64,000 bases of DNA, taken from NCBI GenBank assembly GCA_041652475.1, contig JBAZHG010000001.1, positions 8,161 through 72,160 of the forward strand. Reading direction: 5' to 3'. This document shows positions 7,457 through 37,606 of this stretch, piece by piece (the stretch's first letter is position 1; each line of letters starts with the position of its first letter). Under the pieces are notes generated by a model. The model had not been told where the DNA came from, ran no database searches, and saw nothing but the letters and a program-made list of their open reading frames with translations. A program made the translations under genes and the position numbers. This stretch comes from Bacilli bacterium. GTDB lineage: Bacteria; Bacillota_I; Bacilli_A; RFN20; CAG-826.

Positions 7457-11006
<3,550 letters not shown>

Positions 11007-12937: not shown

Positions 12938-14386
12938 CTAGGCCAAAGCGGTGATGGCCACATCATTGAGCAATTGTAATTGGTAATTTTCGTAGAACTG
13001 GGCGATGTAACCGCTGACTTCATAACTCGCTCCGAGTTCGAACCAATCGTAGTCGACATACGGGAATAGACCTCCGTCAATCCGGAGATTGAAGGAAATG
13101 TCGGTCCCGAAGAAATGGGCATAAATCGTCATGTTGTCGCTGCCGTCTTTGCGCCAGTAATCCCCATAGGTGTAACTGGGGTCGTCTTCTTCGTCGAAGG
13201 TGACTTGGCGGATGGTGACGTTGGCGGTGACGTAAAACCCGTTATAAGGGGCGAAATCGGTCTTGTCGTCGACTTCCAGCCCGGTGAAATCGAGCGGATC
13301 GGCGTTCGCCGCTTCCGGGGCGATGCCGTAAGTGGCGATTAATTCAGAAAAATTCTCCGCTTCCCCGGGCACTAATTTGACAAATGGATACTTTTGTGAG
13401 TAAGTGGTTAGTTCCGGGTCGGTGAATTGAAATGAATTGGTGGCTGCAAATACCGTCGCCTTGCAGTAGAATTCGATGATGTCGCCGGCTTTGGTCGCCA
13501 GCGGGACGCCGCGGTACTGCGTGAAGACGAAAACCGTCGCATAATAGCCGTCTTCGTCGGGGTTGTAGACATCGCGGATCACCATGTTGTTGCCGATCGA
13601 GCCGAGGAACATCGCCCGGACCCGGATCTTGGTCGAATCGTAAAGGGTAATCATGACCGGATCTTCGTTCTCGTCAAAGACGAGATTGCCTTCGCGATCT
13701 TGAAGTTGCACCGTTTCGCCATAGGCGGCCCGAGCAAAGCGGATCGAGATGTCGTAGACTTGGTCGGTATAGTCGAAGGTCGGATCGTCCTCGCCGTAAA
13801 TGCGGGCTCCGGTGGCCGAGGCGTGGGCGCCGGCCCGGGAGAAAGCGTCAAAGTAATCGCATACGGTCGATTGGTCGAACAAAAGGTTTTCGGTATAGGC
13901 CTGCTCGACGAGCTCGAGGTTTAATAGCCGATAGCGGGCGTTCAAGGCCGGTTGGTACCAGACAAAACCCAAATAGCGGCCGCCCGAGCTGTCGGTGACC
14001 CCAAACAAATTACGGTCGTTGATCAAGATGATGCTGGTGGCCGTCGTCAGCTTTTCCTTGGTGAATTCGCTGGCGGCCTTGCCCCACGGTTGGATCTTGC
14101 CGGTCGATTCCGGGGTGTTGATGCCGAGGAAGCGCACCGGGACGTTGGTGCTCCCAACGTTGAAGCGGGCCGTATCCCCGTCGGTCGACGAGCGCAGCGT
14201 CGCCAGACCGATTCCGTCGGTCAAGAAATCCTTGCCCGAGTAATCGCCGACGAAAGTCAAGGCGTCCGTCTCGGCGGTGTTCAAATCGTCCGGTGTCAAA
14301 GACACCGGTTCCGAGGAAGAACCGCATCCGGAGAGGACTGTGGCCAGAAAGGCCAATATAGGAATGATAAATTGTCGAACTCTCAT
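12938..14386 (-). CDS. Lipoprotein with a staphylococcal-nuclease (SNase/thermonuclease) domain plus a C-terminal extension
   Basis: 482 aa. Lipobox LATVLSGCGS. SNase core motifs: DGDTARFNVG..VPVRFLGINTPES..WGKAASEFTKEKL...GRYLGFVWY. Confidence 0.8.
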   Translation of the reverse strand: MRVRQFIIPILAFLATVLSGCGSSSEPVSLTPDDLNTAETDALTFVGDYSGKDFLTDGIGLATLRSSTDGDTARFNVGSTNVPVRFLGINTPESTGKIQPWGKAASEFTKEKLTTATSIILINDRNLFGVTDSSGGRYLGFVWYQPALNARYRLLNLELVEQAYTENLLFDQSTVCDYFDAFSRAGAHASATGARIYGEDDPTFDYTDQVYDISIRFARAAYGETVQLQDREGNLVFDENEDPVMITLYDSTKIRVRAMFLGSIGNNMVIRDVYNPDEDGYYATVFVFTQYRGVPLATKAGDIIEFYCKATVFAATNSFQFTDPELTTYSQKYPFVKLVPGEAENFSELIATYGIAPEAANADPLDFTGLEVDDKTDFAPYNGFYVTANVTIRQVTFDEEDDPSYTYGDYWRKDGSDNMTIYAHFFGTDISFNLRIDGGLFPYVDYDWFELGASYEVSGYIAQFYENYQLQLLNDVAITALA

Positions 14387-19330: not shown

Positions 19331-20377
19331 TTAGGAGTCGGATTTGTCTTCGGGATTTTCCTCACTGGGAATCTTCGATTCGGTTTCCAGAGTTGGCGTG
19401 GCCGGGGTCATGTCTTGATAGGCCTGGCGCTTGGCCGATTGATAGGCTTCCTCGGCGGCCAACTTCTTTTCGTAGGCGGCGGCGTCCTCGGCGTTGGCGA
19501 AAATGAGCGATTCCTTCAAATTGACGACCCTCGTCTGGGCGACGAAGTCATGGGCTGAGCGGTTGCCCTTGGTGAAAATCATCAAGGTGTAGCTGATCAA
19601 GAACGCCCCCATGATGGTGTAAACCGACAAGACGATTTCGGCCGCGAACATCAAAAACCGGACCAGGAGCTGCCAAGCTTTTAACTTGTAGCCCTGCTTG
19701 CCGATGACGCCCAAGTTGAACAGTTTCTTGGCCAAGGTTTGCCCGTTTTTGAAAATAAGCGGCAGCAACAAATAGAAAATAAGCACGGTCACCGATCCGG
19801 AAATGGCCAATATTTGTAGCGAATAGGAACTGATCTGGGCCGCCAGTTCGGCGTAAGGTCCGTAGTCGTTTAGGTCCAGTTGGGCCGATTGGTATGCGGC
19901 TTGGTAGAAGGTACCCAGTTGCTCTTCGGTGGCGTCGGTCTTGGGAACCCCGCGGAGCGAGGGGTCGGGCACTTCGAATTCGTCAAGATCATATTCGAAA
20001 TAGACCGTGATCGTCGCGTCGCTCGTCCCGATGTTTAAAATGTTGGAGTTGTACCATTCGTTGGTGAAGGCGAACGGGGTCGCCTCGTCGGCGTAGGTCT
20101 TGCCGACTTTGAATTCAGAATAGTAGGCGTAGACGGCGTCGGGGATATCCTCGTCGCTACGATAGGTGATGACCTTGGTCTCGGTGTCCTCTACGTAAAG
20201 ATGGGTCGCTAGTTGAATGGCGATGTAATCGTCTTGGATCGCCCGGGTCCCGAAAACCTGGTTGTAGATTGGGCTGACGGCGTAGGTGATGAGGGCCAGC
20301 CACACGAGGACCGCCAATAAAAAATCCAGGATCGCGGCGCCCGAGCGTTTGGCCAAGTTGGCTGGTGCAATGTTCAT
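19331..20377 (-). CDS. RDD-family-like membrane protein with an acidic C-terminal tail
   Basis: The N-terminal region (KRSGAAILDFLLAVLVWLALITYAV) is RDD-like. The alternative upstream ATG at 20437 would add an AT-rich, promoter-like 20 codons, so the start is placed at the ATG at 20377. The ATG is preceded by an AT-rich -10-like sequence and no SD. Confidence 0.55.
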   Translation of the reverse strand: MNIAPANLAKRSGAAILDFLLAVLVWLALITYAVSPIYNQVFGTRAIQDDYIAIQLATHLYVEDTETKVITYRSDEDIPDAVYAYYSEFKVGKTYADEATPFAFTNEWYNSNILNIGTSDATITVYFEYDLDEFEVPDPSLRGVPKTDATEEQLGTFYQAAYQSAQLDLNDYGPYAELAAQISSYSLQILAISGSVTVLIFYLLLPLIFKNGQTLAKKLFNLGVIGKQGYKLKAWQLLVRFLMFAAEIVLSVYTIMGAFLISYTLMIFTKGNRSAHDFVAQTRVVNLKESLIFANAEDAAAYEKKLAAEEAYQSAKRQAYQDMTPATPTLETESKIPSEENPEDKSDS

Positions 20378-20454
20378 ATAAATATTATTTATAAACCAAT
20401 TAATATTATTAATGAGAGCGCTTTTAAAAGCAATCAAAAGATATTATTCGCAAT

Positions 20455-20498: not shown

Positions 20499-21686
20499 TT
20501 ACTTCAAGATTTCGATGACGGTGCCGGCGCCGACGGTGCGGCCGCCTTCGCGAATCGAGAACTTGGTGCCCTTTTCAACCGCGATCGGGTGAATCAATTC
20601 GACGGTGAAAGTGACTTGGTCGCCCGGCATGACCATCTTCACGTTGTCGGGAAGGGTGATGACGCCGGTGATGTCGGTGGTCCGGAAGTAGAATTGGGGA
20701 CGATAGTTGCTCAAGAACGAGGTATGGCGTCCGCCTTCTTCCTTGGTCAAGACGTAAACGGTCGCCGTGAACTTGGTGTGCGGGGTGACCGAGCCGGGCT
20801 TGGCCAGGACTTGGCCGCGTTCGACTTGTTCGCGGTTGACGCCGCGGAGCAAGACGCCGACGTTGTCGCCCGATTGGGCGAAGTCCAAGAGTTTGCGGAA
20901 CATTTCGATGCCGGTGACGATCGATTTGATGGTCGGCTTGATGCCGATGATTTCGACTTCTTCGTTGAGCTTCAGCATGCCGCGTTCGACACGGCCGGTG
21001 ACGACGGTGCCGCGTCCGGTGATCGTCAAGACGTCTTCGATGGCAAGCAACAACGGTTTATCGTTGTCGCGAACCGGGTTCGGGACGTAGCTGTCGACGG
21101 CTTCCATCAATTCGATGATGCACTTTTCAGCGCCGGGTTTGCCTTCGAGGGCATCGCGGGCGGAACCGCGGATGACCGGGATGTCATCGCCCGGGAAGTT
21201 GAATTTGGACAGCGTTTCGCGGATGTCCATTTCGACGATGTCCACCAATTCGGGGTCATCGACGGCGTCGACTTTGTTCAAGAAGACGACGATGTAGGGA
21301 ACGCCGACTTGGCGCGCCAATAGGATGTGTTCGCGAGTTTGGGCCATGACGCCGTCATTGGCGGCGACGACCAGGATGGCGCCATCCATCTGCGCGGCGC
21401 CGGTAATCATGTTCTTGACGTAGTCGGCGTGCCCAGGGCAGTCGACGTGGGCGTAGTGCCGGGTGGCGGTTTGATACTCGATGTGACTGGTATTGATCGT
21501 AATACCGCGAGCCTTTTCTTCGGGAGACGCGTCGATTTCGTCGTATGCTTTGACGATGGTCCCGCCGACGGTTTTGGCCAAAACCTTGGTGATCGCCGCG
21601 GTCAAAGTCGTTTTGCCGTGGTCAACGTGACCAATGGTACCAATATTGACATGAACCTTGCTTCGATCAAATTTTTCTTTTGCCAT
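20499..21686 (-). CDS. tuf: Elongation factor Tu
   Basis: GHVDHGKTT and DCPGHADY motifs. The start is placed at MAKEKFDR, with an AGGAGG SD 10 nt upstream. The ORF-track upstream ATG was not used. Confidence 0.97.
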
Positions 21687-21763
21687 TTTAGAATTTTCCT
21701 CCTGTTGATTCAACGTTCATATTATAGCAAATATAGTTTTAAATCAATACAAGTATTGACTAA

Positions 21764-24343: not shown

Positions 24344-24763
24344 TTATTCGTTGCCTTTTGGCTTCTTGGTGCCGTATTGGCTGCGACCTTGACGCCGTTT
24401 TTCAATGCCGGCGCAGTCGAGCGTTCCGCGGATGATGTGGTAGCGGACGCCCGGCAAATCCTTGACGCGGCCGCCGCGGATGATGACGGTCGAGTGTTCT
24501 TGCAGGTTGTGGCCTTCCCCGCCGATGTAGGCGGTGACTTCGTATCCGTTCGACAAACGGACACGGGCGTATTTCCGAAGGGCCGAGTTCGGTTTTTTCG
24601 GGGTCATGGTGCCGACCCGGGTGCAGACGCCGCGCTTCTGGGCCGAGTTCTGGCTGCTGGAGCGTTTTTTAAGCGAGTTCCAGCGCTTTCCAAGCGCCGG
24701 CGACTTCGTCTTGAATTCGGATTTGGTGCGTCCCGAGCGGACTAACTGATTGATGGTGGGCAT
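24344..24763 (-). CDS. rpsL: 30S ribosomal protein S12
   Basis: 139 aa. MPTINQLVR...[10 protein letters not shown]. Confidence 0.97.
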
Positions 24764-24829
24764 AAATTCACTCCTTAGATTCTTTGTGCATTACGGTACA
24801 CAATACCCGGTGTATCAACCTCCGTCTTT

Positions 24830-24856
24830 TTAAAATGACCGTCGCCGGTCACCAGA
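24830..24856 (-). terminator. Short GC hairpin with a T-tract, lying inside the rpsL 5' leader. Likely terminator of the upstream protease genes and/or a leader attenuator.
   Basis: The minus strand reads GGTGACCG-GCGA-CGGTCAtttTAAAAAG: a 6-bp stem followed by only a 4-T tract. Confidence 0.4.
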
Positions 24857-24878
24857 TGGAGATTTTTGGTCCTTAGTA

Positions 24879-24907
24879 AGTATAGCGACCGTCAAAACCG
24901 TTTGCAA
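24879..24907 (-). promoter_or_regulatory. Candidate str-operon promoter (TTGCAA-17-TATACT)
   Basis: The minus strand reads TTGCAAacggttttgacggtcgcTATACT, about 115 nt upstream of the rpsL ATG. Confidence 0.5.
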
Positions 24908-24917
24908 TAAAAATTTG

Positions 24918-26486
24918 TCAAATCGCCACGAAGGAAAGCGTCGCCTCGTAGCGGTCCAGCGCTTCGACGGTAAACGCCCACGGAAGCGGGGTCCCGTCAT
25001 TGAAAGTGAAAGTTTGATATGATCCGATTCCAAAGGAGTCGCCTTCATTCAATAAGATGTCGTTGGTGGCCATCGACCCGGTCAAGAAGGTCGTCGAGCC
25101 GCCTTTTTCAAGCAGGCGGTAGATGAGGTTTTCGTTGACGGTGGTCGCGTAGGTGTTCGTATGGGCCACTTGCCGATAATAGGCTCCCGAGGCGAAAACG
25201 TCGCTCGGGAGGTCGAGTTCCGGACCTTGGTCTTCGTAGGCGATGAAGGCGTCCCCGGCGCTCCGGTGATAACTGGCCCGGGCGTCGACGTGGTACACCT
25301 TGATGCCGAAATGGCCCATTAAGTGGGCCGAGTCGTGACCATAAGCCCGTTCCGAATCGACGTAGTTGAGTTTGGTCGGGGCGTAGAATTCGATGGCCAG
25401 GTACTCGTCGAAAGCCTTGCCGGACCAGTCGGGGGCGACGATGATCGCCTCCCCGGAGGAAACTAGGGGGGCAATGTCGATTTTCCCGGGTCCGGTCACC
25501 ACGTAGGGCCGCACCCAATCGAGGAGCATCTTGCTCAAGACGGTATGGTCGCCGATCGAATAGTCCATCATGTCGACTTTTCCAGTCGGGCCGTAGGTGT
25601 ATTGGTAGCGTTTGTAGATGGAATCGCTCGGCGAGAAATCGGGGAAGGTGCTTGGAAGTGCCGAAGTATTGTAATAATCGGTCAGTCCCAGCAAATGCCC
25701 GAATTCATGGATGAAGGTATGGGGATCGCCTTTTTGGCGGTAGACGTTCAAAAAATGATAGCTGGCCCACACGTAGGCGTTTCCGATCGGATTGCCGAGG
25801 TAATTGGCCCCGTCGAGCCCGGTGTCAAACGAGGTAAAGGCCCAGAAAACCGACTCGTTGTTGCGGTAGGGGGCGGCGTAAACGAGGAAGACGGAATCGA
25901 GGTAGCCGTCGCCGTCTTGGTCGTAATCGCCGGCGTCGGAGTAGTTTCCCTTATACCAAGTGACCGCCGCTTTCAAGATGCGCTCGGTCGCCACGGTCTT
26001 GCTCCCGGAACTGATTAAATCGGCGACCGATTCCGGGCTCGAATACCATTGGCTGACACGTCCGGATAGTTCCAGTTGGCCGTAACTCGATTTGTGGTAA
26101 AAACTGGCCACCGATTCCCACTGGGTCGTCTCCGGGCGGCCGAAAAAGGCGTTTTGAATGATCAATCGGCTGGCGGTTTCCCCCTCGTCGAGGCGATCGG
26201 CCCGGTAATCGGCGAAATCGACCGGGATCACCAGCACTTTCTGGGCTCCGCGGCTTGACATCGGCACCCGGCGCTGGCTGGCGACGGGATGGGTTCTTAG
26301 CATCGAATTGTAATCGTCGGAGTAAGCCTCCGGCCGATAGTAGTTTTCCTGGACGACTCCCGATTGCTCAAAGGCGATCGGCGCGAAACCATACGGCAAA
26401 AAGGCGACCGAGCCAAGCGCGCAGCCCGACAAGGCGGCGACGGCCCCCAGGGTGATGGCCATCCGGGCGTAGAGGCGCTTCTTCAT
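24918..26486 (-). CDS. Secreted zinc metalloprotease lipoprotein, M6/InhA-like HExxH zincin (paralog 1)
   Basis: 522 aa. Lipobox AALSGCALG. Motifs HEFGHLLGLTDYYN and MMDYSIGDH. Paralogous to the adjacent gene. Confidence 0.7.
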   Translation of the reverse strand: MKKRLYARMAITLGAVAALSGCALGSVAFLPYGFAPIAFEQSGVVQENYYRPEAYSDDYNSMLRTHPVASQRRVPMSSRGAQKVLVIPVDFADYRADRLDEGETASRLIIQNAFFGRPETTQWESVASFYHKSSYGQLELSGRVSQWYSSPESVADLISSGSKTVATERILKAAVTWYKGNYSDAGDYDQDGDGYLDSVFLVYAAPYRNNESVFWAFTSFDTGLDGANYLGNPIGNAYVWASYHFLNVYRQKGDPHTFIHEFGHLLGLTDYYNTSALPSTFPDFSPSDSIYKRYQYTYGPTGKVDMMDYSIGDHTVLSKMLLDWVRPYVVTGPGKIDIAPLVSSGEAIIVAPDWSGKAFDEYLAIEFYAPTKLNYVDSERAYGHDSAHLMGHFGIKVYHVDARASYHRSAGDAFIAYEDQGPELDLPSDVFASGAYYRQVAHTNTYATTVNENLIYRLLEKGGSTTFLTGSMATNDILLNEGDSFGIGSYQTFTFNDGTPLPWAFTVEALDRYEATLSFVAI

Positions 26487-28049
26487 GAATGAGCCTCCCG
26501 GAGGGCGACGGTGATCGTCGCCTCGTGACCGTCAACCGCATCGATGGTTATCGTGTATGGGAACAAGTCCCCATCATTGAAGGAAAAATTCGGATAGTTG
26601 CCCTCGTCGAAGGCCTCCCCGGCTTCGAATAAGGACCCGTTCGTGGCCACGTAGCCGTGCTTGAGGGAATTCCGTCCGTTTGGCTCCAACAGCTGGATCA
26701 ATTTGTGGTAGGGGACCCCGCTCCGGCCGGCGCTGTTGCTGTTGGCCAGTCCGTAATAGACACTCGCAGTCCGGTTTTCCACCCGGTCGACGTAGTCTTG
26801 GAAACGCCACTGACCAGCGCGTTGGACGAAGCGGCCGGGCCGGGCGTCGATGTGGTAAAGCTTGATTCCGGCTTGGCTGAACTGGCGCGGGTAATAGCCG
26901 GCGAATGGTTGGGCCGCGTCCTTTTGATTCAAAGAATCAGGGCGATAGTATTCGATGAGCAGATACTCGTCGAGCAGCCGCTCGTCGTAATGGATCGGGA
27001 CGATGGCCGCCTCGGGCTCGGCCACCGACGGGGCGAGGCTGAAAGTCGCTTCGCCGTTGATGACCTTGGGCTGTAGCCAACCCAGGAGGGCTTTGGAAAA
27101 AGCCCCGTGGTCGCCGACGTTATAATCCATCATGTCGAGGGCCCCGCACGGACCCCAGTCGCCGCGATCGGCGTCGTAGGAATAATAATCGACCAAACCG
27201 AGAAAATGGCCGATTTCATGGATGTAGGTGTGGGCGTCAATCAGGAGTTTCCCGTATTCGTCGGTCCAGGGATGAAAGACCAGTTCGTCATTCTCATCGC
27301 GGAGCAAGCGGCCTTGCTCGTCGCGGTCGTAATAGCCGTCTTTGTACATGAAGTCGTAGCTGGACCACCCGTAATGGTAGACCCCGGGCCGGTTGACGTC
27401 GGCCACGCCGGCGTTATCGAAGCTCGTGTAGGCCCAAAACACCCGTTCCTCGTCGAGGAAAACTTCATCGTGGTCGTGGGCCGGGACCGAATAAACGAAG
27501 TACAAGGCGTCGATATAGCCGTCGCCGTCGCCATCAAAACGGGTCATGTCGTCAAGGTGATGCTCGCGGTACCAAGTCACGGCCGGGCGCATGATTTCCG
27601 CGGCGACCGAGTGTTCGTTCCGGAGCAAGAGGCTCATGGCCGGGACTTCGGCCTCGTACCACTCGCTGACTTCGCCTTCGAATTCGAGTTGCCCGTAGCT
27701 CGATAAGCCGTAGAACGAGCTGACCGAATGCCAGCCGGTTTCGGCGGGTTCCCCGAAGAAGGCCGCTTCGATGTCGGAACGCACCCCGGCGCACCCGCCG
27801 GTCAAGACGCGGCACGGATAATCGGAAAAAGTCACCGGGATGACCAAAATCGGGACGTTCCCGGTCGCCGGCGTCGCCGAGGCATAACCCTGGGCGCGTC
27901 GTAGGGTTTGGTAATCAAGTCGATACGCGGTCGGAGTCATGACGTCCGGGAGGCTCGTCGTTTCGCTCGAAACCGGCTCCGAAACCGAAGCGCAGCCCGA
28001 TATAACGACCATCGCCATGACATAAAAAAGGTTCTTCTTCATGTTCATT
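26483..28049 (-). CDS. Secreted zinc metalloprotease lipoprotein, M6/InhA-like HExxH zincin (paralog 2)
   Basis: The true start is MNMKKNLFYVMAMVVISGCAS. Its ATG overlaps the transporter stop (ATGA). Motifs HEIGHFLGLVDYYS and MMDYNVGDH. The ORF-track N-terminal 207 aa (Arg/Gly-rich) is an unstopped high-GC artefact. Confidence 0.7.
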
Positions 28050-29430
28050 CGACCAAACGGGGGAAAAGGAGATTCAAAACGAACGCCAACAGGATGATGA
28101 TCAAATAACTCGGAATCGGGGTGGTCCCGATCATGATTCGCAAAGAGGTATTGCCGAGGAAGTCGGAGATGAATTCCATCGTCGTCATCAAGATGCCGGC
28201 CCCGAGCACGACCATGGCCAAAGCCGTCGCCTGGGGGTGGAGATCGTCGTGGATCCGTTCGGTCACCCGCCCGAATCCGCGCACGGCTTGATAACCGGCC
28301 CAAGCCACGAGCACCCCGCCGACGGCCGGAAGCGGGATCAAGTCGAACGCCCGGGCAATCGGCAGATAAGCACTGAGACCGATGGTGAATAGCGCTAGAA
28401 GGACCAATACGAGCGGTCGGGCTTTCGGGAGCCGGGTCCCGATGGCGACCGTGTCCTCGTTGAAAGTGAGCGGGACCCCGGATACCATCCCCCCGACTAA
28501 AACGGCCACCCCTTCGATTAGGATGGTCTTGTCGGCGTGAGGGCTCTCTTCCGGGTTGGGGGCCGCCAAAGCGTAACGGGTGAGCGAGGCCATGTGCTCG
28601 GACACGGTCACCAAAACGAGCGGCACGAATAGAAGCAGGCTTTCCCAATCGAAGTGGAGATACTGCCAAAAGCCGAAGTAGGCTTCAAGGTTATGGAGCG
28701 GGGTCGGGGCCGTCTCGGCGAAGAACGAGGCGTTCATGAATCCAATCATCAGCGTTTCGTCGAGCGATTTCGATATCCACAGGAGCTCGACGGCGTCGAG
28801 CAGTAACCCCATGGCGACGCCACCGGCCAGGCCGATCAGTATTGCACTAGCCGGTTGCTGCCCGACTTTTTTGCTTAAGGAAGTGGTGATGAAATAGCCC
28901 ACGAAGGCGGCGACGGCCACCAGGACGTATTTATAAGCCGGGCCGCCCGATGCCAGGAGCGGCTCATAGTAGGCAAAGCTAAAAATCCGCGGCAAGAGCG
29001 ACAAGGCCAACAGGACCATCAAGGCCCCGCTGAAGGCCGGCGAAAAGACGCGGCGCATCCGCCGGACGCCGATGTAGCGCGCCAACGTCGCCAAAAGGAT
29101 GTACAAAAGCCCGCTGATCCATAGGGAAACTAGGAGGCCGCCGAGGCGGAAATTCCAAGCCGGGGTCCCGATTTCGAGCGTTTCGAGCGAGCGCCCGTAG
29201 ATGACGAGCCCGGCTAAAAAGACAAACGAAGGCGCGGCCCAAAGCGGGAAGCGGCGACCGCCCATGATCAAGACGACGAGCCCGGCCAGGCCGATCGAAA
29301 GCCAAATCGAAGAGAGGCCGACGTTGGCCCCCACGGCGACGACGAGCGACCATCCGAAAACGGCCAGCCATTGGCGCCAGCCGTTGGCCCATCCCTGCGG
29401 GACGCGGGTTTTCGTTCGGGTTTCGGTCAT
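28045..29430 (-). CDS. Polytopic membrane transporter-like protein (family not assignable by eye; possibly a nucleobase or solute permease)
   Basis: 461 aa with about 12 hydrophobic segments. Leaderless-type start (TATCAT -10, 7 nt before the ATG, no SD). Confidence 0.45.
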   Translation of the reverse strand: MTETRTKTRVPQGWANGWRQWLAVFGWSLVVAVGANVGLSSIWLSIGLAGLVVLIMGGRRFPLWAAPSFVFLAGLVIYGRSLETLEIGTPAWNFRLGGLLVSLWISGLLYILLATLARYIGVRRMRRVFSPAFSGALMVLLALSLLPRIFSFAYYEPLLASGGPAYKYVLVAVAAFVGYFITTSLSKKVGQQPASAILIGLAGGVAMGLLLDAVELLWISKSLDETLMIGFMNASFFAETAPTPLHNLEAYFGFWQYLHFDWESLLLFVPLVLVTVSEHMASLTRYALAAPNPEESPHADKTILIEGVAVLVGGMVSGVPLTFNEDTVAIGTRLPKARPLVLVLLALFTIGLSAYLPIARAFDLIPLPAVGGVLVAWAGYQAVRGFGRVTERIHDDLHPQATALAMVVLGAGILMTTMEFISDFLGNTSLRIMIGTTPIPSYLIIILLAFVLNLLFPRLVE

Positions 29431-29463
29431 AGTTTAATGATACAACAATTAAGGATTGGACTT

Positions 29464-29490
29464 TTAAAAAAAGCGTGGTCTCCCACGCTT
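29464..29490 (-). terminator. Strong rho-independent terminator after rpoC
   Basis: Hairpin aagcgtgg-tctc-ccacgctt (8 bp), followed on the minus strand by TTTTTTT. Confidence 0.85.
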
Positions 29491-29501
29491 TGGTTCATCG
29501 G

Positions 29502-33395
<3,894 letters not shown>

Positions 33396-33410: not shown

Positions 33411-36400
33411 TTAATCTTCGTAGCTGTCGTCAACGACGGCGTTTTCGTTCAAATCGACGACGGTTTCGCTCGTCATGGCGCGAATCGAGGAATTGATCTT
33501 GCGTTCCTCGGCCAAGGCTTCCTTGGCCAGGGCTTCCATATCGATTTCCTGGTTGTTTTGATCGTACATACGAACGTCGATGGCCAGGGATTGGAGTTCC
33601 TTGGTCAAGACCTTGAACGACTCGGGAATGCCGGGACGCGGGATGTCGCGGCCCTTGATGATGGCTTCATAGGTTTTCCGGCGGCCGACGCGGTCATCGG
33701 ATTTGATTGTCAAAATTTCTTGCAGCGTATGGGCGGCCCCATAGGCTTCGAGGGCCCAGACTTCCATTTCGCCGAAACGCTGTCCGCCGTTTTGGGCTTT
33801 GCCGCCGAGCGGCTGTTGGGTCACGAGTGAATAAGGTCCCGTCGCCCGGGCGTGCAGTTTGTCGTCGACCATGTGCACGAGTTTGATCATGTACATAACC
33901 CCGACCGAAATGCGTTCGTCGAAGGCTTCGCCGGTGCGCCCGTCGTGGAGGATGGTCTTGCCGTCCTCGGGGACGCCGGCTTGTTTCATGAGGTCGAGGA
34001 TCTCGTCGTTGGAGATGCCGTCGAAAACCGGGGTGGCGATTTTGAGACCGAGTTTTTTGGCGGCCATGCCGAGGTGGATTTCAAGGATTTGGCCGATGTT
34101 CATCCGGCTGGGGACGCCCAGTGGGTTGAGCATGATGTCAATCGGGGTGCCGTCTGGCAAAAAGGGCATGTCTTCGACCGGAAGAATCCGGGAAATGACG
34201 CCTTTGTTGCCGTGGCGGCCGGACATCTTGTCGCCTTCGGAGATTTTGCGTTTTTGGACGATGTAGACGCGGACGACTTCATTGACGCCGGGCGGCAGCT
34301 CGTCGCCCTTCTTGCGCGAAAACACCTTGACGTCGAGCACGATGCCGGCGCCGCCATGAGGAACCCGCAAGGACGAATCCTTGCCTTCCTTGGTCTTCTC
34401 GGAGAAGATGGCCCGCAAGAGTTTTTCCTCGGCCGTCGGTTCGGTTTGACCCTTAGGGGTCACTTTGCCGACCAGGATGTCGTTTTCCTTGACTTCGGCC
34501 CCGGGCACGATGATGCCGCGGTCGTCGAGGAAGGCTTTGGCGTCCTCGTTGATGTTGGGGACGTCGCGGGTGATTTCCTCGTTGCCAAGCTTGGTCGCCC
34601 GGCATTCAAGGGTATGTTCCTCGATGTGGATTGAGGTATAGACGTCTTCTTTGACGAGCCGTTCCGACATGATGACGGCGTCTTCATAGTTATAGCCGTT
34701 CCAGGTCATGAAGGCGATGGTGACGTTTTGGCCCAAAGCCAATTCGCCTTGGCTCATGGCCGGCCCGTCGGCGATGATGGTGCCCTTTTCGACGTGGGCG
34801 CCCGGTTTGACGATGGCCACCTGGTTGATGCAGGTGCCTTGGTTCGAACGGTTGAATTTTTGGAGCCGGTAAATGTGGGGGCCTTTTTCTTCATCGACCA
34901 CGACTTGGCGCGAGTCGACGTAGCTGACGGTTCCCGGGGCCTGGGCGACGACGGCGAGGCCGGAGTCGCGGGCGATGGTCGATTCGATCCCGGTGCCGAC
35001 GAACGGCGCCGAAGGACGGAGTAACGGCAAGGCTTGCCGCTGCATGTTGGCGCCCATCAAAGCCCGGGTCGTATCGTCGTTTTCCAGGAAGGGGATGCAA
35101 GCCGAAGCCACCGAAACGACTTGTTTCGGGGAGACGTCGATATAATCGACTTCATGGACGTCGGCCATGATGTTGTCGCCGTCGGCGCGGGCGATGACCG
35201 TATCGTCGAGGAAATATCCCTCGGCGTCGATGCGGTCGGTCGCTTGGGCGATGATGAAGGGCCGTTCTTGTTCGGCCGAGAGGTAGACGGTTTCGTCGAG
35301 GACGCGGCCTTTTTGCTTGTCGACGCGCCGGTAAGGCGTTTCAATGAAACCGTAATTGTTGACTTTGGCGTAGGTGGCCAAGTTGGTGATCAACCCGATG
35401 TTTTGGCCTTCAGGGGTCTCGATCGGACAGATGCGGCCATAGTGCGAATAATGGACGTCGCGCACGTCGAAGCTGGCCCGGTCGCGCTTGATGCCGCCGG
35501 AACCGAGGGCCGAAATGCGGCGCTTGTTGGTGAGCTCGGCCAGCGGGTTGGTTTGATCCATGAACTGGGAGAGCGGGTCGGTCGAGAAGAATTCTTTGAT
35601 TTGGGAAGTGAGCGGCTTGATGTTGACGAGGCTTTGCGGGGTCACGTTGGTGATGTCGGAAATCGACATCTTCTCGCGGATGGATTTGCCCATCTTCGAA
35701 AGGCCGACCCGGAAGCGGTTTTGGATCAGTTCGCCGACGCTGTGGATGCGGCGGTTGCCCAAATGGTCGATGTCGTCTTTTTGGCCGAAGCCGTCCATCA
35801 GGTTCATGAAACTCGAGAAGGTGGCGATCATGTCCGGAATCGTGACCGTGTTCATGGTTAAGTTCAAATCGGTGCCGACGATCGGCGAGACGATTTCTTT
35901 TTTCTCGTTGTTGTAGACGTGGACGATATTGACCTTGTCATGGGGATCCAAACGGGCGAAAATCGGGAGCGAAACTTCGTGGGCGCCTTTTTCGAAGAAG
36001 CGCTCGGAGCGGAGTTCGTCGACCAGCTCCTTGGTCATCAAGGTGTTTTTCTTAACGCGAATCTTCTTGTTGGTGCCGACGAGGTCCTCGGCCAGGATCA
36101 TCCCGACCAAGCGGCTATAAACACCGAGTTTCTTGGCGTATTTGTAACGTCCGGCCACGCCGAGGTTGTAGCGTTTCGGATCGAAGAATTTTTGGTAAAT
36201 GAAATTGACGATGCCTTCAGGGGTCCGCGGTTCGCCCGGCTTCATCTTGCTGAAGATTTGGACGAGTCCGTCGGTGATCGACTTGGTGTCGGCGTCTTTC
36301 TCCAAGGTGTTGCGAAGGGCTTCGCGATCGCCAAAGAGATCGAGGATTTGCTGCGGGTCTTCGAGGCCGATGGCTTTCAGGAAGATGGTCGCGTACATTT

Positions 36401-36968
36401 TCCGTTGCCGGTCGATTCGGACCGTGAGGACGTCTTTGATGTCGCTTTCGAATTCAAGCCACGTGCCCCGCATCGGGATGAGGTCGGCTTTGTAGAGCAG
36501 TTTGCCGGTCTTGTCCATCGTTTCCGAAAGGTAGGCTCCCGGCGAGCGGCGGATCTGCGAGACGATGACTTTTTCGACGCCGTTGATGATGAAGGTGCCA
36601 CTTTCGGTCATCATCGGGAAATCGCCCAAGAAGACTTCGGCGTCGTTGATGACGGAAGTCTCTTTGAAGATCAATCTCAAGGTGACGCGCAAAGGGGCAC
36701 TGTAGGTCATGTCGCGCTCTTTGCATTCAAGGTAGGTATAAGTCGGTTCGTCGAACCGGAATTTTAAATACTGGAGTTCGAGGTTGTCGGCATAGTTCGT
36801 GATTGGGAAAACGTCTTTCAGGGCTTCGTCGAGGCCGGCTTCGATCAGCCATTTGTACGATTCGGTCTGTACTTCGACCAAATTGGGCAAAGGCAGAGTG
36901 CCGCTAATTTTGCTGTAATCGCGACGGGAATTGCCGAGTAATTTGAATTCTTTTTTGCTTTTTTCCAT
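33411..36968 (-). CDS. rpoB: DNA-directed RNA polymerase subunit beta
   Basis: The start is placed at MEKSKKEFK, with an AAGGAG SD 7 nt upstream. The ORF-track start at 36992 is an upstream extension. Confidence 0.97.
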
Positions 36969-36991
36969 AAAGACGCTCCTTGGTATTTGCA

Positions 36992-37606
36992 TTAATCGTG
37001 AGCCTGGTAGACGTGGTAGCCGGCCGCCCGGGCAATCCGGGTGACGTGGCGATATAGGGTTTGAAGGTAAGCGTTTGTCGAGGCCGCTCCTTGGGCTTTG
37101 CGGATGACGATATAGAGCTTTCCGCCCGGTTTGAGATGGTTTTTGGCTTCGGCGTAGAAGCGGTAGACGACTTCTTTGCCGGCCCGGATCGGGGGATTGG
37201 TGACGATGGTATCGTAGCAGTCCCGCACTTCCGCATAACCGTCGCTGACGAGGGCGATGACGCGCGCGTCAAGGCGTCGGGTGGCAATGTTCTTTTTGGC
37301 GAGGTCGATCGACCGTCGGTTGACGTCGACCATCGTGACCCTGAGGGCCGGAAACTGATCGGCCAGGACGATGCCAATCGGTCCGTAGCCACAGCCAAGA
37401 TCGAGCAAGTCGGTCCCCAAATCTTCACCCAAGAGGGCTTCGGTCAGGATCCGGGTCCCGTCATCGATGCGGCGGGCCGAGAAAACGCCCCGGTCGGCGA
37501 GGAAGGTATACGCGCGCCCGGCGAAACTCGCCTCGAGGGCGCGCGGTTGACTCGTGAGATTCTGGTCATTTTCGAAGTAATGCGACAGAATTGAGCACCT
37601 CCTCAT
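36992..37606 (-). CDS. Class I SAM-dependent methyltransferase (ybxB/RsmC-like), in the conserved rplL-rpoB slot
   Basis: 204 aa. The [14 protein letters not shown] motif and a TNPP motif. Confidence 0.8.

Follow-up and report, generated by a model that had tools for sequence, protein, structure and literature searches.

A predicted pair of M6-like lipoprotein metallopeptidases at an apparently ancient site between rpoC and rpsL in uncultured Bacilli

The stretch of DNA analyzed here, 64,000 nucleotides of contig JBAZHG010000001.1 from the Bacilli bacterium assembly GCA_041652475.1 (the window), carries three genes between rpoC and rpsL, the first gene of the str operon. They code for a membrane permease and two paralogous lipoproteins resembling M6 zinc metallopeptidases, and together they are called the cassette below. 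Lipoprotein A is the rpsL-proximal paralog of 522 aa and lipoprotein B the rpoC-proximal paralog of 521 aa, and residue numbers refer to A unless stated otherwise. A preliminary description of the sequence had taken these genes for an accessory insertion in the rpoBC-str backbone. Our results point instead to an ancient, native arrangement that appears to be fixed in a large clade of uncultured Bacilli with small genomes. On the basis of gene content, gene overlaps, motifs, fold, family, synteny, duplication age, composition and purifying selection, we consider it fairly probable that the three genes form a native, lineage-specific operon, fixed between rpoBC and str before the clade diversified, and that A and B are surface proteases, likely with a nutritional function.

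Relatives were collected by scanning a single genome for each GTDB species, which gave 317 stretches with relatives; 79 of these 317 loci are listed, and annotation with the window's own proteins yielded 84 non-redundant loci (designated by L numbers where needed). The M6-like genes were flanked by rpoC upstream and rpsL downstream in 44 of the 84, by rpoC only in 9, and by rpsL only in 13; neither gene was present in 5 loci with readable flanks, and the flanks of the remaining loci were too short to judge. Altogether, rpsL lay 3' of the M6-like genes in 57 of the 84 loci. When only the 55 loci with both flanks readable were considered, 44 had rpoC and rpsL, 6 had one of the two, and 5 had neither. 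Four of these five were single extra copies, two of them in metagenome-assembled genomes (MAGs) that also held the junction pair, while the fifth (L079) contained three tandem genes. All M6-like genes were co-oriented with rpoC and rpsL. In addition, seven homologues of A that were looked up (80, 64, 55, 44, 39, 37, and 37% identity) were without exception located between rpoC and rpsL, together with one to three further M6-like genes. The cassette occupied the same site in all five closest genomes (L001, L011-L014) and in distant ones; identity of rpoC among carriers went down to about 58-64%, and both sides of the midpoint-rooted rpoC tree were occupied. A search for the same genes between rpoC and rpsL in related genomes, which the preliminary description had proposed as a check on its own insertion reading, thus revealed a conserved ancestral arrangement.

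The carriers among the 79 listed loci were all uncultured MAGs. Their depositor labels included Bacilli, Bacillales, Erysipelotrichaceae/Erysipelotrichales, Tenericutes, Mollicutes, and Coprobacillus sp. CAG:826 (L058), and a few of the labels were evidently wrong. These labels place the carriers among RFN20-type lineages. The guanine-cytosine (GC) content of the window genome was 55%, against 30-45% in most carriers and 30-49% outside its nearest relatives, so the organism represents an unusually GC-rich branch of a low-GC group. Inside the clade of the window, GC content was observed to step up (L004, L012, L002, L013, L001, L011) from 0.38 through 0.45, 0.44, and 0.49 to 0.55-0.56.

The tandem lipoprotein genes had also been read as a sign of recent diversification, which does not agree with our results. 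A and B were only 34% identical over their full length (E 7e-91), and in a neighbor-joining tree of 160 family members a single split took 48 of the 49 rpoC-adjacent genes and 3 of the 45 rpsL-adjacent genes. The order was fixed, with the gene adjoining rpoC nearly always B-like and the gene adjoining rpsL A-like. Both lineages were kept in nearly every genome, and the number of M6-like copies varied by lineage from 1 to 4. A and B thus represent two old lineages, and their duplication predates the clade.

The composition of the cassette was that of its surroundings. GC content at third codon positions (GC3) was 0.75-0.78 in the cassette and 0.74-0.79 in core genes, and the relative synonymous codon usage (RSCU) correlated at 0.94, so the codon comparison suggested earlier as a check showed the cassette to match the flanking core genes. 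No integrase or transposase was found among the open reading frames (ORFs) of the window, and no flanking repeats were found at the borders of the cassette, where there were only short patches common to the two paralogs. The ratio of nonsynonymous to synonymous substitution rates (dN/dS) against the two nearest genomes was 0.12-0.17 for the cassette and 0.00-0.07 for core genes, and a neighboring gene coding for an RDD-family membrane protein gave an equal value. These ratios show that the cassette is under purifying selection.

Both lipoproteins contain the motif HExxHxxGxxD, as HEFGHLLGLTD at positions 260-270 of A and HEIGHFLGLVD at positions 277-287 of B. In motifs of this type, the two histidines and the aspartate are zinc ligands, and the glutamate is the general base. 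The zinc motif regions are HEFGHLLGLTDYY at A260-272 and HEIGHFLGLVDYY at B277-289, with HExxHxxGxxDYY common to both proteins. In 30 homologues, residues H260, E261, H264, G267, D270, Y272, M307, and D308 were invariant, and the lipobox cysteine was at least 90% conserved. With a lipobox defined as a signal peptide ending in [LVI][ASTVI][GAS]C, A has LSGC with Cys22 and B has ISGC with Cys19, suggesting that both proteins are lipidated.

The family models gave scores on both sides of their cut-offs. A passed the Peptidase_M6 model PF05547 with 29.7 bits (cut-off 22), and TIGR03296 gave 84.2 bits for A and 95.1 bits for B (E about 1e-23 to 1e-27; cut-off 110.8). When a profile of 30 family members was compared with the PDB, InhA (4YU5) was the sole significant solved relative (E 1.9e-8), followed by the motif region of snapalysin. 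The AlphaFold model of A (predicted local distance difference test, pLDDT, 86.6; predicted template modeling score, pTM, 0.88) had the InhA catalytic-domain fold and matched InhA2 in Foldseek (E 7e-12). A non-peptidase zincin fold was rejected, since every catalytic residue is invariant. The names given by depositors to the homologues were already "M6 family metalloprotease-like" or "immune inhibitor A domain-containing". Based on the family-model scores, the profile match to InhA, the fold match, and the invariant active-site residues, A and B appear to be short and remote representatives of the M6 fold that retain an intact active site and are predicted to be anchored by a lipid, and the conserved catalytic residues argue for zinc-dependent endopeptidase activity. 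The preliminary description had recognized both paralogs as zincin lipoproteins of M6 type from their letters, and the profile searches that it called for pointed for both to the M6 protease family. The subfamily is large, with 1886 representatives at E <= 1e-30, mostly of about 500 aa, in a profile search of 1.84 billion representatives of 50%-identity clusters.

A and B differ from their closest characterized relative in several respects. They are only 18% identical to immune inhibitor A of the Bacillus cereus group (InhA1/InhA2, MEROPS M6, PDB 4YU5/4YU6). Crystal chains of InhA have 695-756 residues, whereas A and B have about 520; 354 residues were aligned, and part of InhA has no counterpart. 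Enzymes of InhA type are secreted as zymogens of about 700-800 aa, carry additional C-terminal domains, and are released from the cell; this architecture was not found in A and B, which have a lipobox cysteine as a predicted anchor. They also differ from InhA in scoring under the TIGR03296 cut-off and in forming a fixed pair between rpoC and rpsL. A and B belong to the M6 family by motif and fold but are not orthologues of InhA. The likeness to snapalysin (M7; PDB 1C7K, 1KUH) and to the adamalysin/ADAM metzincins is confined to the active-site helix and core, is far weaker than the likeness to InhA, and is accompanied by differences in size and domain content.

The gene order on the minus strand was rpoB, rpoC, permease, B, A, rpsL, rpsG, fusA, and tuf (Table 1). 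The stop codon of the permease gene overlaps the ATG of B in an ATGA, and the stop of B overlaps the start of A in the same way; this operon-like packing is in line with the tight coupling of the three genes noted earlier. A 728-aa ORF was rejected as gene B, because its open frame reaches into the preceding permease gene and the orthologues begin with the methionine (MKK) of the lipobox-containing signal peptide. The coordinates, overlaps, motifs, promoter, and hairpins of the preliminary description were accurate in every detail checked.

Table 1. Features of the rpoB-tuf region of the window, in gene order, with positions in the window.
Feature	Position	Strand	Basis
rpoB	36992..33411	minus	ORF list
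rpoC, 1297 aa, upstream anchor of the junction	33395..29502	minus	ORF list; orthologues 58-97% identical, 5' of M6-like genes in related loci
Intrinsic-terminator-like hairpin and U-run at the end of rpoC	29491..29465	minus	Sequence and fold
TATCAT, -10-like box, candidate cassette promoter	29442..29437	minus	Sequence, conservation in six genomes
NCS2/NAT-family permease, divergent, nucleobase-type, 461 aa	29430..28045	minus	PF00860, UraA matches
Lipoprotein B, M6-like zinc metallopeptidase (predicted), 521 aa, lipobox ISGC, rpoC-proximal lineage	28048..26483	minus	TIGR03296, motif, tree
Lipoprotein A, M6-like zinc metallopeptidase (predicted), 522 aa, lipobox LSGC, rpsL-proximal lineage	26486..24918	minus	PF05547, motif
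Predicted rpsL (str operon) promoter TTGCAA-17-TATACT	24907..24879	minus	Consensus scan
rpsL 5' leader	24878..24764	minus	Conservation, fold
GNRA-loop hairpin TGACCG-GCGA-CGGTCA and UUUU within the rpsL 5' leader	24851..24832	minus	Sequence and fold
rpsL, first gene of rpsL-rpsG-fusA-tuf, downstream anchor of the junction	24763..24344	minus	ORF list
tuf	21713..20499	minus	ORF list

The permease scored 92.4 bits with PF00860 (cut-off 27), covering profile positions 41-365 of 389, and has about 13 hydrophobic segments. Substrate-level models all failed, including TIGR00801 (59 vs 291.8 bits), PRK10720 uracil permease (53 vs 477), and pbuX (45.8 vs 414). The best PDB sequence match was UraA (E 2e-6), and the AlphaFold2 (AF2) model (pLDDT 75.7) matched UraA best in Foldseek (E 4e-12, template modeling (TM) scores 0.70/0.78), followed by SVCT1 and UapA. 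The UraA uracil:proton symporter (PDB 3QE7, 5XLS, 8OMZ) belongs to the same PF00860 family and has the same fold of 7+7 transmembrane segments. The Glu-His of the SEH motif of the permease aligns with that of AEH in UraA and is invariant in the window's clade. The two proteins are 18-20% identical; the permease has Ser where the UraA motif has a later His, and its acidic position aligned to the Glu of the UraA "GEN" is not invariant. Transporters of the NCS2 family have nucleobases as substrates, in animals also ascorbate, but not peptides or amino acids. The permease of the window probably imports a nucleobase-like compound. A further lipoprotein gene was observed at 12938..14386 on the minus strand, following an ABC sugar transporter and binding protein and about 14 kb from the permease gene; its product of 482 aa has the lipobox LSGC and matches a staphylococcal-nuclease domain (PF00565) with 37 bits. 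A surface nuclease near an NCS2 permease hints at nucleic-acid scavenging.

The distribution of the permease was narrower than that of the proteases. A word-index search returned only 13 homologues, all with at least 43% identity and all in the window's own clade. Among the related loci, those of this clade and of three remote lineages (L007/L016/L017, L009/L025, and L042) contained the permease, its position being the same in two branches that lie far apart in the rpoC tree, and it was absent from most loci keeping both proteases. The permease and the proteases are therefore not obligatory partners. The L009 protein and the permease of the window aligned over their full length (23% identity, E 9e-12) with local motifs in common, which favors one old, fast-evolving orthologue lost many times rather than independent gains.

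The end of rpoC is followed by a 9-bp hairpin (AAAGCGUGG-GAGA-CCACGCUUU) and U7 with a folding free energy (dG) of -14.3 kcal/mol (z -3.5). Its stems were invariant and its loops variable in the six closest genomes, consistent with the terminator that had been assigned to rpoC earlier. A heuristic applied without a control detected a hairpin and T-run within about 50 nt 3' of rpoC in 48 of 52 non-redundant loci, suggesting that the M6 genes are generally a transcription unit apart from rpoBC. The candidate -10 box of the cassette ends 6 nt 5' of the permease ATG, and both the box (TATCAT/TATTAT/TATAGT) and its spacing were conserved in six genomes, so it may work as a promoter. No Shine-Dalgarno sequence was found before the ATG in the window or the six closest genomes. 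The permease had been described as leaderless and polytopic; the second term is supported by the hydrophobic segments, while a leaderless mRNA is plausible because of the conserved spacing and the missing Shine-Dalgarno sequence.

The predicted rpsL promoter begins 11 nt after the stop codon of A and was invariant or nearly so in six genomes, and the rpsL leader was almost invariant in the six closest genomes. The leader was predicted to fold into a long stem enclosing a GNRA hairpin and two short hairpins (nested fold dG -21.3 kcal/mol, z -3.0). The GNRA hairpin, which lies within the longer conserved stem and is followed by only four U, is the only hairpin with a U-run 3' of the cassette; it lies downstream of the rpsL promoter, as the preliminary description had said of the terminator of the cassette (Table 1). 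It may be mainly an element of the leader, and it might also end or attenuate the transcripts of the cassette. Since this hairpin is part of the rpsL leader, transcription of the cassette may run on into rpsL, as the preliminary description had proposed. Rfam returned only two tRNAs in the whole window and, for the rpsL leader, one match at chance level and no family. None of the 24 predicted pairs in the leader showed a compensatory change, the sequences being too similar, and no exact match to the leader motif was found outside the window's own clade. The rpsL leader may be an uncharacterized regulatory leader of the str operon.

Taken together, the core of the locus would be an ancient pair of paralogs, with B beside rpoC and A beside rpsL, headed in the window's lineage and a few others by an NCS2-type permease of UraA fold. 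Transcription of rpoBC would largely stop at the rpoC terminator, and the cassette would start from its own -10 box. Each paralog would be made with a lipoprotein signal peptide, exported, and anchored through the lipidated lipobox cysteine to the external side of the cell membrane. In the M6 catalytic domain, H260, H264, and D270 would bind zinc and E261 would activate water, and a conserved DMMD segment follows; residues 23-79 may act as a pro-segment. The most likely targets of the enzymes would be proteins and peptides outside the cell, cleaved at its surface, and the released peptides might feed uptake by transporters encoded elsewhere in the genomes of these Bacilli, which are poor in sortases, often without a wall, and auxotrophic for several amino acids. 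In RFN20 and RF39, genomes are small and several amino-acid pathways are missing (PMC7301438). For such a wall- and sortase-poor, amino-acid-dependent lifestyle, lipoprotein anchoring would be an obvious way to display enzymes and proteolysis an obvious need, and this context suggests that A and B probably have a nutritional role. Two MAGs sister to the window's lineage have a third gene for an M6-like lipoprotein at another genomic site (L069 6561..10787; L065 6513..10840), directly 3' of an M29 aminopeptidase gene and converging on glnA, which codes for glutamine synthetase. The position of this third paralog beside the aminopeptidase gene gives a hint of a nutritional role.

Several points weigh against the reading of a fixed nutritional protease operon. 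PF05547 gave no match to B, and both proteins score under the cut-off of TIGR03296. Our literature search returned no activity or expression data for any member of the subfamily, and the argument for a nutritional role is one from context. InhA-type enzymes cleave antimicrobial peptides and host proteins and shape the secretome. Nothing in the locus connects degradation with uptake, as the neighboring transporter is from a family for non-peptide substrates. With a GC content of 55% in the window genome, published traits of RFN20 may not transfer to it. The fixed position may reflect a low rate of rearrangement rather than selection for this site: the block of tuf, RDD gene, and ABC transporter is also syntenic across the clade, as is the whole region from rpoB to the ABC transporter, so that a fixed position need not mean selection for the rpoC-rpsL site. 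In most loci that reach past tuf, the gene for the RDD-family membrane protein (19331..20437, minus strand, in the window; sometimes two genes) lay 3' of tuf and was followed by an ABC sugar transporter. Finally, the junction of other lineages also holds unrelated genes, including genes for a GGDEF-EAL protein, a LacI-type regulator plus binding protein, components of ABC transporters, and additional lipoproteins; the GGDEF-EAL assignment was confirmed by Pfam, while the LacI-type protein, ABC components, and lipoproteins were judged from N-terminal sequences only. The rpoC-rpsL site seems to tolerate additions. These extra genes sit beside the M6-like genes (L022 9532..11682; L056 11131..13538; L061 9484..15088; L084 9536..13709).

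A defensive or host-interaction role like that of InhA, in which the proteases destroy antimicrobial peptides, immunoglobulins, mucins, or the surface proteins of competitors, is unlikely, although it deserves attention. InhA is the closest characterized relative by structural match and is named for cleaving insect antibacterial peptides, and many carriers are gut and rumen MAGs according to their record titles. The faster evolution of A and B than of core genes and their variable copy number would also fit a changing target. However, record titles show the family to be equally conserved in host-free genomes from digesters, wastewater, and groundwater, the dN/dS values indicate purifying and not diversifying selection, and the retention of both lineages in nearly every genome suggests a core role.

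It is rather improbable that the pair acts on the cell's own surface, as a sheddase or maturation protease for its own lipoproteins and secreted proteins. InhA1 shapes the Bacillus anthracis secretome, and a predicted membrane-anchored, core-like pair kept in nearly every genome beside growth-related operons would suit such work, which would also account for its retention among housekeeping genes, but the locus holds no gene for a partner substrate and the position may reflect region-wide synteny. We give no better chance to a more elaborate possibility, that A and B form an obligatory, possibly heteromeric surface protease machine that is a defining trait of this clade of reduced Bacilli without sortases. 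Expression tied to the transcription/translation supercluster, through partial read-through at the terminator of rpoC and the hairpin shared with the rpsL leader, would keep it at this site, so that protease supply would scale with growth and the ancestral permease would add nucleobases for RNA.

The preliminary description had also joined the three genes in a module for protein degradation plus uptake. That the proteases release a product which the permease imports is very doubtful, even though the ATGA overlap would couple their translation in the window, the spacing is tight in the closest relatives, and two widely separated branches of the rpoC tree have the permease at this position. The family search that had been proposed for the permease identified a nucleobase-type transporter of UraA fold, not a peptide carrier, and the gene is missing from most loci that retain both proteases. 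The least credible alternative is a recently acquired accessory or mobile cassette followed by recent tandem duplication of the protease; model Firmicutes have rpoC and rpsL adjacent or one small gene apart, unrelated genes occur at the junction in some other lineages, and the M6-like copy number varies, but the shared site in sister and distant genomes refutes it for the window's lineage, and the divergence of the two position-specific paralogs, the native composition, the lack of mobility genes and repeats, and the dN/dS values also weigh against it.

Brandis, Cao and Hughes (2019; PMC6735719) reported multigene insertions and terminator-promoter overlaps in the rpoBC-str-S10 supercluster of Gammaproteobacteria, including Salmonella. 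Similarly, the locus described here has foreign genes between otherwise contiguous operons and a terminator and next promoter closely packed at the borders. In that supercluster, however, the insertions are lineage-specific and of various genes, whereas here one insertion, coding for predicted surface enzymes, appears fixed across a deep Bacilli clade; in addition, the putative terminator of this locus does not overlap the next promoter but comes after it. No paper on this M6 subfamily or its placement between rpoC and rpsL was found in the literature searched. The undocumented feature is the clade-wide fixation of the A/B pair between rpoBC and str, while the proteins are otherwise of a known kind, and the locus reveals no new kind of system. 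What looked like an island within the best conserved cluster of operons on the chromosome proves to be a lineage-wide, ancient arrangement, and a tempting misreading is thereby corrected. Our results also expose a large, uncharacterized subfamily of short M6 peptidases predicted to be lipid-anchored. The uncultured group concerned is common in guts, rumen, and anaerobic digesters, and almost all of its genomes keep two M6-like genes at one fixed site. The pair therefore offers a practical genomic marker for the clade and a sensible starting point for work on expression and enzyme activity that asks how these amino-acid-dependent, often wall-less bacteria feed or defend themselves.

Two further observations concern other genes of the window. 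The gene for pyruvate:ferredoxin oxidoreductase (7457..11006, minus strand) is split into the ORFs 11006..10266 (POR_N) and 10429..7457 (the rest), which implies a frameshift within the 10266-10429 overlap; this could be an assembly error or a pseudogene. Directly 5' of rpoB lies a small methyltransferase gene with an MTS domain (36992..37606, minus strand), the stop codon of which adjoins the start of rpoB, and in L010 a gene with the same domain likewise precedes rpoB.

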